Of a stretch of DNA of 29,240 bases, positions 3,568 through 6,609 are shown piece after piece. The stretch is from a virus. A program made the translations under genes and the position numbers. Position 1 is the first letter of the stretch. Each line of letters begins with the position of its first letter. The stretch lies in UHGV virus genome UHGV-0275034; one strand, written 5' to 3'. The notes beneath the pieces are model-generated. The model ran no database searches. It saw only the letters and a program-made list of their open reading frames with translations, and was not told the origin of the DNA.

Positions 3568-3857
3568 TGGCTAACCTACGCAAAGAAGCGCGCGGAAGAG
3601 AATGCCAGGTACGTATTTACGGCGTATGCAATGGCAATCCTGAAACCACAGTTCTGGCACATTACCGGATGGCTGGAATTTGCGGAACGGGAATGAAGCC
3701 TGACGACCTGATCGGCGCATGGGCTTGTAGTGACTGCCACGCGGAGATCGACCGACGCACCCGGATTCTCGACAACAAAGACGCCAGACTTTACCACCTC
3801 GAAGGCGTGATCAGGACGCAGGCGATACTGCTGAAGGAGGGGAAGATTAAGTCATGA
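3567..3857 (+). CDS. ybcO: YbcO-like putative nuclease (DUF1364 family)
   Basis: 96-aa product with the Cys/His pattern RGRECQVRIYGVCNGNPETTVLAH ... CSDCHAEIDRR that I recall from DLP12 YbcO; start overlaps the upstream stop (TAATG). Confidence 0.65.
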   Translation: MANLRKEARGRECQVRIYGVCNGNPETTVLAHYRMAGICGTGMKPDDLIGAWACSDCHAEIDRRTRILDNKDARLYHLEGVIRTQAILLKEGKIKS

Positions 3858-4378
3858 ACGGTAAAAGATATCCAACACAAAAAGAAATCAATGAATTGTA
3901 TGAATATAATAGCGAAACAGGTTTGTTTATATACAAGAGAAGAGAAAGTGTAAGAGAGTGCTGGAATTCAACATATGCCGGTAAGATTGCTGGTTCTATA
4001 GATGAAAAAGGATACGTTCGTATATCTGTAAATAAAAAAGTTTGTCGAGCTCATAGAATCGCATGGATATCCTTTTATGGAAGTGAACCTGATGGGGAAA
4101 TTGACCACATAAATGGAGTTAAAAGCGATAACAGAATATGCAATTTGCGCGTTGTAGATGATAAACAGAACTCAAGGAACAGAAAAAAGCCTATTAATAA
4201 TCGCTCTGGAGTAATGGGGGTTGCCTACTATAAGAAGAATAAAAAGTGGGGCGCATATATAAACAGTGATAATAAAAAGATATTTCTTGGATTATACGAT
4301 GACATATCTCTAGCCGTTAATGCCAGAAAATTGGCGGAATCACGATTGGGGTATCACCATAATCATGGGAGAGGATAA
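3854..4378 (+). CDS. HNH homing endonuclease with AP2-type DNA-binding domain
   Basis: HNH motif region (IDHINGVKSDNRICNLR ... NSRN) followed by an AP2-like segment (SGVMGVAYYKKNKKWGAYI); gene is markedly AT-rich relative to its neighbours. Confidence 0.75.
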   Translation: MNGKRYPTQKEINELYEYNSETGLFIYKRRESVRECWNSTYAGKIAGSIDEKGYVRISVNKKVCRAHRIAWISFYGSEPDGEIDHINGVKSDNRICNLRVVDDKQNSRNRKKPINNRSGVMGVAYYKKNKKWGAYINSDNKKIFLGLYDDISLAVNARKLAESRLGYHHNHGRG

Positions 4379-4741: not shown

Positions 4742-4926
4742 ACGCCACAATTCAAACGATACCAGAGCTTCTTATCCAGACACGAGGCAATCAGACCGAA
4801 GTGGCAAGGATGCTTTCCTGCGCAAGAGGAACAGTGCTCAAGTACAACCGAGACAGCAAAGGCGAGCGTCATGTAATAGTTAACGGCGTCCTGATGGTCA
4901 AACAGGGCAAGAGGGGAAGACGATGA
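4738..4926 (+). CDS. ninH: NinH
   Basis: 62-aa product containing GNQTEVARML-C-RGTV, as in lambda NinH; start overlaps the rusA stop. Confidence 0.75.
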   Translation: MNATIQTIPELLIQTRGNQTEVARMLSCARGTVLKYNRDSKGERHVIVNGVLMVKQGKRGRR

Positions 4927-5411
4927 GCATAAGAGAACTAAACCTCACCAAAGAGCAGCACGATTGGCTGAATGGCTGGCTTGAACTGTGGGGAGCATGG
5001 GTTTATTCAGGTCGTCTTGAAAAGCGCATGAGCAGCGTAATAGCGAAGTTCATGGAGAGCGTAGAGCCGGGAAGAGTTATGACAAGGCCAATGTGCAATG
5101 ATGATGATGGAATGTTGATTTCTCAGGTCGTCGATTCCGTCATGTACATTGACAAGAAAGCCTTTGGCATCCTCCTCAGCTACTACGCTCATGGATCTTC
5201 CAAGCACGCCATTGCATCTTACTATCATCGTGTCGCAAGACCTCGCAAGATGTTATGCCGTGGCGGCGGGCGCATTCAAAAACCATCGCTCGCAACCTGT
5301 CGCCGGGAAGTTGACGAAATCCTCAATGCCTCGTTGTTTATGATTTATCCGGTTCTGGATAGTGCGTTTAAAAACCGGAAACGTGTAGATAAAATTAAAC
5401 ATGTAGCATAG
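4923..5411 (+). CDS. Q: Late-gene antiterminator Q (non-lambda Q type, 162 aa)
   Basis: Position directly after ninH and before the lysis genes; translation resembles the Q antiterminator family found in 21/82-like lambdoid phages and DLP12 QuuD. Confidence 0.7.
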   Translation: MSIRELNLTKEQHDWLNGWLELWGAWVYSGRLEKRMSSVIAKFMESVEPGRVMTRPMCNDDDGMLISQVVDSVMYIDKKAFGILLSYYAHGSSKHAIASYYHRVARPRKMLCRGGGRIQKPSLATCRREVDEILNASLFMIYPVLDSAFKNRKRVDKIKHVA

Positions 5412-5417
5412 AACGTG

Positions 5418-5446
5418 TTGACATCATTGAGCAAATGAGCAACACT
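5418..5446 (+). promoter_or_regulatory. Candidate late promoter pR' (-35 TTGACA at 5418..5423; weak -10 about 17 bp downstream)
   Basis: Consensus -35 hexamer immediately after the Q stop, where lambdoid late promoters sit; the -10 hexamer is poor (AACACT), so the call is tentative. Confidence 0.35.
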
Positions 5447-5454
5447 ATTCGCAT

Positions 5455-5503
5455 AAGCTGCCGTTAGTGACTCTTAAGTTGCAACGGTGGCTTTTTTTGT
5501 TTG
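5455..5503 (+). terminator. Candidate tR'-like intrinsic terminator
   Basis: Imperfect roughly 10-bp stem (AGCTGCCGTT / AACGGTGGCT, two G-U pairs) followed by TTTTTTTGTTTG. Confidence 0.45.
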
Positions 5504-5522
5504 CACAACAGGTAAGAGCATT
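5504..5522. repeat. 19-bp direct repeat CACAACAGGTAAGAGCATT, copy 1
   Basis: Exact 19/19 match to 5755..5773; the same motif follows tR' in phage lambda as I recall. Confidence 0.8.
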
Positions 5523-5754
5523 CTCCCTTATGGGGCTTGGCTTAAATGCACCGAGTGCTCTTATCGTTGTGGCAGCACAACGATAGTTTTCGTCAGAGTT
5601 GGCGACTTTGCGGTTTTTTAGAAACTGACCACAAAGATAAATGCAAACGATGATGTTGTTCTGATGGCGGCGTAATAGCCTGTAAGTCAGCAAGGTCTTC
5701 CGACTCCTTGTAAACAAATTCGGCGCACTGGCCCGGTGTGATTAATAATGGGCA

Positions 5755-5773
5755 CACAACAGGTAAGAGCATT
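5755..5773. repeat. 19-bp direct repeat CACAACAGGTAAGAGCATT, copy 2
   Basis: Exact match to 5504..5522; the two copies bracket about 232 bp with no convincing ORF. Confidence 0.8.
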
Positions 5774-6285
5774 GCGCGCCTGACGAGCCCATGAGGGACG
5801 AAACGCATTAGCGTCGTGCGGAGTATCCCCAGCCGGGGAATAACTGGATACCAGGGGAGACAACCCTAAGCGCATTTACGAGTGTGTTTAGGGCGTGGGT
5901 CGGCAATGACTCCCTGTGCAGCCGACATCTGGCCCGGCAACATACAGTGCTCCTTCCGTTGTGCTGAATTAAGCGAATACCGGAAGCAGAATCGGGTCAA
6001 CAAATGCGTACAGGCGTCATCGCCTCCCAGTAACAGCACACCCAAACTGAGCCGTAGCCACTGGCTATCCTGAACTCATCAGTGATAGTTACGCTGCGGC
6101 CTTCTATACATGACCTTCGTGAAAGCGGGTGGCAAGAGGCTGCGCTAACAACCTCCTGCCGTTTTGCCCGTGCATATCGGTCACGAACAAATCTGATTAC
6201 TAAACACAGTAGCCTGGATTTGTTCTATCAGTAATCGACCTTATTCCTAATTAAATAGAGCAAATCCCCTTATTGGGGGTAAGAC

Positions 6286-6609
6286 ATGAAGATGCCAGAA
6301 AAACATGACCTGTTAGCCGCCATTCTCGCGGCAAAGGAACAAGGCATCGGGGCAATCCTTGCGTTTGCAATGGCGTACCTTCGCGGCAGATATAATGGCG
6401 GTGCGTTTACAAAAACAGTAATCGACGCAACGATGTGCGCCATTATCGCCTGGTTCATTCGTGACCTTCTCGACTTCGCCGGACTAAGTAGCAATCTCGC
6501 TTATATAACGAGCGTGTTCATCGGCTACATCGGTACTGACTCGATTGGTTCGCTTATCAAACGCTTCGCTGCTAAAAAAGCCGGAGTAGAAGATGGTGGA
6601 AATCAATAA
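6286..6609 (+). CDS. S: Holin, lambda S type (dual start M1-K2-M3 giving antiholin S107 and holin S105)
   Basis: 107-aa product that matches lambda S as I remember it, including the MKM dual-start motif; the upstream sdi region also looks lambda-like. Confidence 0.9.

Follow-up and report, generated by a model that had tools for sequence, protein, structure and literature searches.

In the 29,240-nt viral genome UHGV-0275034 (the window, meaning the whole stretch of DNA that was analysed), whose source is a lambdoid, P22-like prophage or phage, the 874-bp gap between the late antiterminator gene Q (4923..5411) and the holin gene S (6286..6609) reads as the leader of the late operon, which past the terminator tR' appears to be assembled from RNA modules. 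One of these modules, on the + strand at 5582..5754, is a 173-nt RNA lying between two hairpins that we call stem A, and it seems to be derived from transfer-messenger RNA (tmRNA, the product of ssrA), keeping the coding part and lacking the tRNA-like domain. We infer that this phage 'coding piece', by docking on host tmRNA, replaces the host tag template with its own, or at the least keeps host tagging from taking place. The anatomy of the interval, as described below, is well supported by comparative evidence and we consider it highly probable; the mechanism is what we infer from it. A first-pass annotation made from the letters alone had singled out this gap and proposed that it could encode a small RNA. 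A structured RNA with partial matches to the Rfam tmRNA models and with covariation bears this out, although its tmRNA-derived identity and its 5' domain antisense to ssrA had been missed; the earlier observation is thus confirmed and its interpretation partly supported.

The tmRNA-like RNA and its tag

The Rfam tmRNA models gave sub-threshold matches at 5621..5724 (E 0.003-0.004), with AUAAAU, GCAAACGA and the stop region aligned. The tag reading frame at 5643..5678 on the + strand (GCA AAC GAT GAT GTT GTT CTG ATG GCG GCG TAA TAG) would encode ANDDVVLMAA followed by two stops and has AUAAAU just 5' of it. As in tmRNA's mRNA-like domain, there is an Ala resume codon with U at -5 and A at -4, a short tag with a hydrophobic and Ala end, and a stop; AUA is retained at -6..-4, and T16 A17 A18 .. 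G21 C22 are the invariant alignment positions around the resume codon. The frame was exactly 10 codons plus a stop in 71 of the 71 copies examined, with 12 different tags of the form AN[DE]....[AV]A. Codons 1-2 vary only synonymously, codon 3 encodes only Asp or Glu, all four Ala codons occur at the last position, and the stop alternates between TAA and TGA, a pattern which is indicative that the phage tag is under coding constraint. No in-frame start codon precedes the tag, and a UAG lies eight codons upstream. An ordinary small open reading frame (ORF) in the +1 frame (AUG CAA ACG..) was considered and rejected, as its length varies (MQTMMLF or MQTKKCIWQ before the stop) and its AUG is lost in phage FSL SP-063 (AACUGCU).

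Downstream, helix 5 of tmRNA has an equivalent at 5661..5690 (+; CUGAU 5661-5665 with GUCAG 5686-5690, and GGC 5666-5668 with GCC 5678-5680), in whose loop the stops lie; in the 18-sequence alignment used for the structure test, its fourth outer pair is split evenly between A-U (9) and G-C (9). Two pseudoknots follow on the same strand. In pseudoknot a (5691..5723; S1 5691-5695 / 5706-5710, S2 5700-5703 / 5720-5723), all four S2 pairs are changed on both sides with 100% of cells paired, as are three of the five S1 pairs. Pseudoknot b (5725..5753; S1 5725-5728 / 5736-5739, S2 5731-5734 / 5750-5753) has a conserved loop, GAUUAAUAA, two S1 pairs changed on both sides, and stem variants that by eye include GCCC/GGGC, UCCCUGA/UCAGGGA, GGCGGGAG/CUCCCGCC and GCCCAC/GUGGGC. 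Over the whole alignment 12 pairs were changed on both sides, against 7.5 +/- 1.6 in shuffles (1/500 reached it), and the covariation score was 0.269 against 0.149 shuffled (0/500), slid controls remaining at or below 0.118. Covariation therefore supports the predicted helix around the stop and the pseudoknots after it. A candidate 5' helix (GUUUU/GAAAC) was paired in 90% of cells with zero compensatory change. When a covariance model of the phage RNA was searched against 190 kb, four of the five matches outside the window, all weak, were ssrA tag regions (Photorhabdus, Vibrio, Rodentibacter and Extensimonas).

An acceptor strand was found neither at the 5' end (AUAGUUUUCG) nor at the 3' end of the RNA, and a pseudoknotted acceptor mimic of the turnip yellow mosaic virus (TYMV) type at the 3' end was discarded for want of a conserved CCA and of G3-U70. 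We likewise set aside an ssrA fragment left by integration at ssrA; such duplications hold the ssrA 3' end and not the tag, and virulent phages, too, carry the element, there with a promoter of its own. A search of the window for a partner 'ACGAAAAC' gave the element itself as the sole exact match.

The ~51-nt 5' domain (5583..5633, +) is antisense to E. coli ssrA nt 54-107, which we take, from the E. coli structure, to comprise pseudoknot 1 (PK1), an 11-nt linker, the resume codon and tag codons 2-6. We checked the sequence of E. coli ssrA, and it is identical in 5426 of 5426 genomes. The 5' motif UAGUUUUCGU is invariant and reads as the reverse complement of codons 3-6 in the ssrA tag, and a perfect core of 11 nt pairs 5584-5594 with ssrA 96-106 (P = 0.008 against the whole of ssrA, 0.0015 against the tag region). 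The full-domain duplex predicted with RNAduplex reached -49.4 kcal/mol (z -5.8; 0/300 shuffles), which is stronger than the own fold of the RNA at -45.2 kcal/mol. The same antisense pattern recurs, at z values between -3.7 and -6.6, in the copies from C1, IME11, MK54, Kuttervirus-type and P1-like phages. The predicted pairing thus exceeds chance and is conserved in homologues, as expected of an antisense RNA, and we consider it probable that the phage RNA acts on host tmRNA by pairing. In a host ssrA sample that covered taxa other than Erwinia, Pectobacterium, Salmonella and Klebsiella, the duplex fitted best with Enterobacterales and Vibrio ssrA and less well with that of Pasteurellaceae and others, and the target sequence was near-invariant in Enterobacterales and Vibrionales among the ssrA loci listed. 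The phage tag differs from the host tag exactly at the seed-pairing site, so that the RNA would spare itself.

Two further observations concern these sequences. The host tag DNA GCAAACGACGAAAACTACGC is identical, including synonymous positions, across most Enterobacterales and Vibrionales among the loci listed (L106-L186), which suggests a constraint at the RNA level. We rejected the idea that the lambda-like leader (6084..) contains a second, decayed 5' domain, the alignment score being 19 against a null of 14.9 +/- 2.7 and the ssrA duplex having a z of -0.46.

The tmRNA-like segment was found in 768 phage records, in which it is unannotated, at 72-94% identity. The carriers belong to unrelated groups, namely C1-like and MK54-like siphophages, N4-like Gamaleyavirus, Kuttervirus, FelixO1-like phages, Erwinia Kolesnikvirus and P1-like phages. 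With 5500..5950 as the query, 454 of 5426 complete E. coli genomes matched, mostly over the tmRNA-like part; many E. coli prophages carry copies 100% identical to the window, and the exact module combination of the window occurs in only 2 of the 5426. Among the E. coli matches 264 are plasmid-borne and may be P1-like. Wherever tRNA genes are nearby, the element lies beside or among them on the same strand, and in six phage groups a sigma-70 promoter places the 5' end of the RNA at (U)AGUUUUCG. The P1-like phage JL22 (L088 1198-1376) has a divergent copy with the tag ANDDLMMVAA upstream of tRNA-Asn and tRNA-Thr. On a 157-kb Kuttervirus-like contig an Rfam STnc100 match above threshold (53 bits; L071 1030-1244, minus strand) lies between the tmRNA-like RNA and two tRNA genes; STnc100 and the Pas small RNA of a preprint were both considered for the identity of the element and are unrelated to it. 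FelixO1-like phages hold a permuted tRNA-like piece (L083 ~640-720, L084 ~650-720) that consists of a T-arm, an acceptor 3' strand (GCCA in Mijalis), a 4-nt loop, an acceptor 5' strand and a D-arm. Its acceptor pairs are GAAGGGU/ACCCUUC in Mijalis and GUCGAGU/ACUCGGC in wV8, and it is used in a permuted-tmRNA call made by ARAGORN.

Late control unit and RNA modules of the Q-S leader

The bounding genes are secure in type: Pfam assigns the ORF at 4923..5411 to Phage_antitermQ (E 1e-24), making it a Q antiterminator, and that at 6286..6609 to Phage_holin_3_1, a lambda-type S holin. The measured 874 bp agrees with the ~875 bp first given for the gap, and 'unusually long' holds in a relative sense only, the lambda gap being 676 bp. 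A claimed ORF-free stretch is overlapped by mechanical ORFs of 35-90 aa, none of them supported in any part of the gap. Neither a tRNA nor a tmRNA was called in the window by ARAGORN, nothing in it matched Rfam at curated thresholds, and PGAP left zero annotation in the equivalent gap of E. coli EC6622, where window 5507..5950 recurs at 99.5% identity. Sf6 and phage 21 hold tRNA genes in the same slot, as had been proposed in describing it as a position for morons such as tRNA genes. Upstream, among the nin-region genes, a 174-aa ORF at 3854-4378 has an HNH-like motif (EIDHINGVKSDNRICNLRVV) and looks by eye like an insert of the homing-endonuclease type.

Directly after the 21-type Q we recognise what appears to be a pR'-qut-tR' unit of the phage-21/Sf6 type. 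The late promoter pR' (5418..5446, +) has the -35 element TTGACA (5418-5423), noticed already in the first pass, and a weak -10-like AACACT (5441-5446) that is aligned opposite CATAAT of Sf6; the consensus promoter scan of the window did not call it because the -10 is weak. It aligns with a promoter annotated in Sf6 as 'nearly identical to phage 21 late promoter'. The intrinsic terminator tR' (5455..5498, +) comprises a 17-bp hairpin (stem ~5455..5493) and seven U at 5492..5498, lies in a region that folds at z = -5.6, and is base for base the same as the tR' annotated in Sf6 ('similar to phage 21'). Position after Q, promoter, terminator hairpin and U-run all agree with the type, and homology to the annotated Sf6 promoter, qut and terminator upholds the earlier reading of a pR'/tR' unit.

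Past tR' the 19-mer CACAACAGGTAAGAGCATT occurs at 5504 and 5755 and nowhere else in the 29 kb, a count that stays at two when 3 mismatches are allowed (0.01 expected; 0/100 shuffles reach 2). Each copy is followed by a partner arm, AGTGCTCTTnCCGTTGTG, at 5554..5571 and 5946..5963, and we read the 19-mer as the conserved 5' arm of the stem A hairpin module, and not as a junction scar or a target duplication. Stem A module no. 1 (5504..5571, +; arms 5504-5522 / 5554-5571) encloses a 31-nt cargo at 5523-5553, and module no. 2 (5755..5963, +; arms 5755-5773 / 5946-5963) encloses a 172-nt cargo and folds at z = -2.5. Lambda has the same 19-mer once, after its tR', where it pairs with AGTGCTCTTTCCGTTGTG 39 nt downstream. 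A census of the fetched loci gave 113 instances with 62 distinct cargos (31-172 nt) and 37 distinct arm pairs, in which pairing is kept; the arms in other phages show compensatory changes as well as G-U pairs that are possible on one strand only. In the related prophages L094, L098, L099, L101 and L103 tR' runs straight into the second hairpin, so that 5504..5754 is an extra 251-bp, repeat-bounded unit. The arms probably serve as homology for the shuffling and exchange of modules. The 31-nt cargo (CUCCCUUAUGGGGCUUGGCUUAAAUGCACCG) has the tmRNA-like RNA as its neighbour in phages MK54 (Klebsiella) and Mijalis (Citrobacter) as well; in Mijalis its outer arms are different (AAUAUU/AAUAUU), and it may be a functional companion of that RNA.

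A second module type, stem B, resembles a tRNA scaffold, with an acceptor-like stem of 7-9 bp (GUUGUGG(UG).../...(CA)CCACAAC), a D-arm-like hairpin (GCGCAGGCUGAUGCGC) and a T-arm-like hairpin (GCCGGAGAUCAGCACCGGC), and complementary loops (CUGAU/AUCAG); some cargos hold a true GGTTCGATTCC T-arm. In virulent phages stem A units alternate with these tRNA-shaped units in arrays located 3' of a promoter and 5' of tRNA genes; such arrays, with hypervariable cargos, head tRNA clusters in L001 (2650-2830), L002 (2665-2900), L003 (2665-2875) and many of L007-L080. The lambda tR'-S leader (L005 988-1062 and 1058-1140, which are lambda 44787-44861 and 44857-44939) holds one stem A and one long-range stem of the stem B type (GTTGTGCTG...CAGCACAAC), which makes the classic late leader of lambda part of this module system too. 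In the window the lambda-type stem B, read from the sequence, lies at 5958..6042 (+; GTTGTGCTG 5958-5966 with CAGCACACC 6034-6042), with 8/9 pairs where lambda has 9/9. The small inverted repeat GTTGTG-GCAG-CACAAC recorded in the first pass is present, with flanks, at 5562..5585 (+; arms 5562-5571 / 5576-5585), and looks like a stem B without its interior when set beside GTTGTGCTG...CAGCACAAC of lambda. It is followed by UUUUCG and was scored terminator-like by the scan (window 5561-5590); it may attenuate read-through, or the first anti-ssrA seed bases may be paired in the late transcript. The CACAAC/GTTGTG arms were compared by eye with integron attC-like sites and do not fit RYYYAAC/GTTRRRY.

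The cargo of the second hairpin begins with a predicted type I hammerhead ribozyme at 5775..5820 (+), with stem I 5775-5779 / 5816-5820, core CUGACGA 5780-5786, stem II 5787-5799, GAAA 5800-5803 and stem III 5803-5814, for which self-cleavage is predicted after C5815. In an alignment of 12 sequences the core (C3 U4 G5 A6 N7 G8 A9, G12 A13 A14, A15.1-U16.1, NUH) is complete and invariant apart from N7 (C/A/U) and the cleavage-site H17 (C/A). In stems II and III, which are closed by loops, there are pairs with both sides changed, while stem I is invariant and open, which is the type I layout, and RNAalifold recovered the three-way junction unaided. The homologues come from a T7-like Enterobacter phage, Pectobacterium and Dickeya phages, and IMG/VR contigs. 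Always directly after the hammerhead comes a structured RNA of ~130 nt (5816..5945, +) with five predicted helices, including a long-range helix and a pseudoknot: Pa 5823-28 / 5846-51, Pb 5832-37 / 5933-38, Pc (the pseudoknot) 5855-59 / 5910-14, Pd 5864-74 / 5883-93 and Pe 5899-5904 / 5921-26. Over hammerhead and companion together, pairing extends to 98.9% of cells, and both sides are changed in 18 pairs, where shuffles gave 5.9 +/- 1.7 (0/500); fifteen of the 18 fall in the companion (Pb 2, Pc 4, Pd 7, Pe 2), and no Rfam family matches 5816..5945. In some phages a tRNA lies directly 3' of the companion, so that RNase P would set its 3' end. The first pass had missed this hammerhead and companion (5775..5945) and had taken the sequence for lambda-like from ~5880 on, which does not stand: alignment puts it at 5945, from where the rest of the late leader (5945..6285, +) runs up to the S start codon at 95% identity to lambda 44844..45185.

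Proposed docking on host tmRNA and its rivals

The tag frame is under coding constraint and yet the tRNA-like domain is absent, and docking on host tmRNA is the simplest model that fits both. The modules would be transcribed with the late mRNA after Q antitermination, and the hammerhead cut after C5815 would free the leader RNAs from the lysis/structural mRNA, which would then begin with a 5'-OH. The tmRNA-like RNA would anneal to host tmRNA, an intermolecular helix taking the place of PK1 (which is replaceable by a stable hairpin) and burying the resume codon of the host. That of the phage, which has a U(-5) and an A(-4) of its own, would lie ~9-11 nt past the end of the duplex, the host spacing from PK1 to the resume codon being 11 nt. 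Conceivably, a chimeric two-piece tmRNA would result, made of the host tRNA-like domain with SmpB and the phage coding piece, and rescued ribosomes would add a phage tag (..LMAA or ..LAVA) instead of ..ALAA. Leader anatomy together with docking and a swap of the tag template is our best overall explanation, tentatively held. That the template is swapped, rather than host tagging plainly inhibited, falls somewhat short of what we would call probable. The joint proposition, that this RNA family (carried by hundreds of phages of enterobacteria and by ~8% of the complete E. coli genomes) is a parasite of host ribosome rescue that swaps the tag, and that a ~130-nt RNA of a new structural class, processed by the hammerhead, is part of the same leader, is more tentative still.

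Several points weigh against this model. ARAGORN found no tRNA-like domain in the window or in the C1, IME11, MK54, Kuttervirus, wV8, Panisse and P1-like loci, and the Rfam gathering thresholds were missed by a wide span (tmRNA_permuted 26.3 bits for 47; beta_tmRNA 17.2 for 84). The single-sequence fold of the element (-45.2 kcal/mol) was no better than that of shuffles (z -0.65). In the FelixO1-like and Erwinia-type copies the ssrA duplex is shorter and weaker (-23 to -28 kcal/mol, p 0.007-0.08), and the near-invariant host target leaves no room for a signal of phage-host covariation. The consensus scan gave the window copy no promoter of its own, and the first bases of the RNA are paired in the hairpin at 5562-5585, so that its release from the late transcript would take a processing step. 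The hammerhead matched Rfam HH9 at only 15.3 bits (gathering cut-off 52; E 1.5), and the window copy has a C-A mismatch in stem II (5788/5798) and a G-U in stem I where its relatives are standard. Pairing, templating and cleavage remain predictions. RNase III might also cut the ~45-bp imperfect duplex, which would result in inhibition and not in a template swap.

This last point leads to the main rival, according to which the RNA is only an antisense inhibitor or decoy that, by pairing with tmRNA or sequestering the proteins that act with it, turns off trans-translation in late lytic growth, the phage tag never being translated. Complementarity that spans PK1, the resume codon and the first codons would suit such a role, the long duplex is a likely RNase III substrate, and there is a precedent in the DS6A molecule, which has a tRNA-like domain only and is regarded as antagonising tmRNA (PMC4131195, PMC11915505). 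An inhibitor, however, would leave unexplained why the tag frame stays at 10 codons with synonymous changes at conserved residues, why a stop codon is always present, and why unrelated phage groups have conserved AUA at -6..-4, helix 5 and the two pseudoknots, and we consider it rather unlikely as the whole account. The modules might instead be passive cargo, decaying debris of tRNA clusters moved by recombination at the conserved arms and functionless in this prophage. The hypervariable stem A cargos (62 distinct in 113 instances), the gain and loss of modules among close relatives, the rarity of the exact combination and the missing promoter of the window copy agree with this. Decay is nevertheless hard to reconcile with tmRNA-like and hammerhead RNAs conserved with compensatory changes across unrelated phage families, with the many prophage copies 100% identical to the window, or with a tag frame intact in every copy, and we regard it as improbable.

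In a further reading, which builds on the first-pass annotation, the 19-bp repeat marks a recombination joint or a tandem duplication, and the insert encodes a moron or a generic small RNA that acts by base-pairing. Compared with related prophages the 251-bp unit is an addition, with the direct repeat at its bounds, and the annotators of CUS-3 marked 'boundary sequences' in the interval. The repeat, however, is half of a conserved hairpin, is single-copy in lambda, and covaries with its partner arm, including strand-specific G-U pairs, and the two copies flank different cargos, so that there was no tandem duplication. An inserted unit therefore stands where a junction scar does not; this account is largely refuted as it was stated, is improbable as a whole, and survives only as an account of module exchange. 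The least probable is a self-sufficient phage tmRNA, in which the coding piece and a phage-encoded acceptor piece would form a permuted two-piece molecule. ARAGORN called a permuted tmRNA in Mijalis with the tag ANDNVFLAVA, 'ssrA' was reported for phage Moogle (PMC4319497), and the permuted tRNA-like piece of Mijalis and wV8 has acceptor pairs that covary. The Mijalis piece, however, lies ~560 nt upstream, with three tRNA genes and a promoter in between, it lacks G3-U70 (A3-U70 in Mijalis, C3-G70 in wV8), and no such piece was found in the 29-kb window or in the other scanned phage loci. The ARAGORN call in Mijalis is accordingly doubtful.

Trans-translation is the main bacterial ribosome-rescue pathway, and several phages depend on it. 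If docking with a template swap is correct, proteins released from stalled ribosomes during infection would bear a C-terminal tag chosen by the phage and meet a different proteolytic fate, and nature would offer a demonstration of the coding part of tmRNA being supplied in trans. Direct pairing by which a phage RNA re-programs or blocks tmRNA would add a new way of taking over the host, and a function would be assigned to a conserved unannotated element of model and therapeutic phages (FelixO1-like, ViI-like, N4-like, P1-like and lambdoid). The tR'-S 'spacer' of lambda-like phages proves to be part of a modular RNA system that is also found in phage tRNA clusters, including a hammerhead predicted to cut the late leader.

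Comparison with known systems

Published lists of phage tmRNAs cover mycobacteriophages, Bacillus phage G and the DS6A molecule (PMC4131195, PMC11915505). In our literature search no description of the RNA, its tags or its antisense domain was found, the sole exception being one sentence in the genome announcement of phage Moogle, in which ARAGORN found 'ssrA' (PMC4319497), and the tmRNA-like phage RNA is apparently undescribed. Mycobacteriophage DS6A carries a partial tmRNA with the tRNA-like domain only, which is thought to interfere with host trans-translation (PMC4131195, PMC11915505). That molecule is a mirror image of the phage RNA described here, as its tRNA-like domain is retained and its coding region is missing.

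Processing of phage transcripts by hammerheads is already known from prophages and phage intergenic regions (Perreault et al., 2011, PMC3088659). The one predicted here shares their canonical core, their three stems and their location between transcription units, where cleavage would process a long transcript. It differs in that its subgroup is always fused to the ~130-nt pseudoknotted RNA, falls below the Rfam cut-offs, and often lies inside a stem A hairpin or just 5' of a tRNA. Lambdoid phages make short pR'-tR' leader transcripts, such as the 6S RNA of lambda and StxS of Stx phages, with which our interval shares a late promoter of the constitutive kind and, immediately past Q, an early terminator that would be read through only with Q; the unit here, in contrast, spans only 5418-5498, and the novel RNAs lie past tR'. 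The species 1 and 2 RNAs of T4 are stable non-tRNA RNAs of a phage tRNA cluster and are likewise small structured RNAs co-transcribed with phage tRNAs, presumably freed by tRNA-processing enzymes; to our knowledge, the stem A/stem B module system and its cargos have not been described for T4.

The closest relative is the bacterial one-piece tmRNA, with which the phage RNA has in common an Ala resume codon that follows an A/U-rich sequence with U at -5 and A at -4, a tag of 10 codons that begins AND and ends in hydrophobic residues and Ala, a stop in the loop of helix 5, and downstream pseudoknots. It departs from that model by lacking the acceptor stem, T-arm, CCA and G3-U70, by having only two pseudoknots after the tag, and by a tag that ends ..LMAA or ..LAVA where that of the host ends ..ALAA; in place of PK1 it has a domain antisense to host PK1 and the start of the host tag. 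With the two-piece (permuted) tmRNAs of alpha-proteobacteria, cyanobacteria and some beta-proteobacteria it shares a coding function on a separate RNA that needs an acceptor partner. In those bacteria, however, both pieces come from one gene of one organism and are paired via the acceptor and P2 helices, whereas the proposed partner of the phage RNA is a complete host tmRNA, with pairing predicted at PK1 and the tag region.

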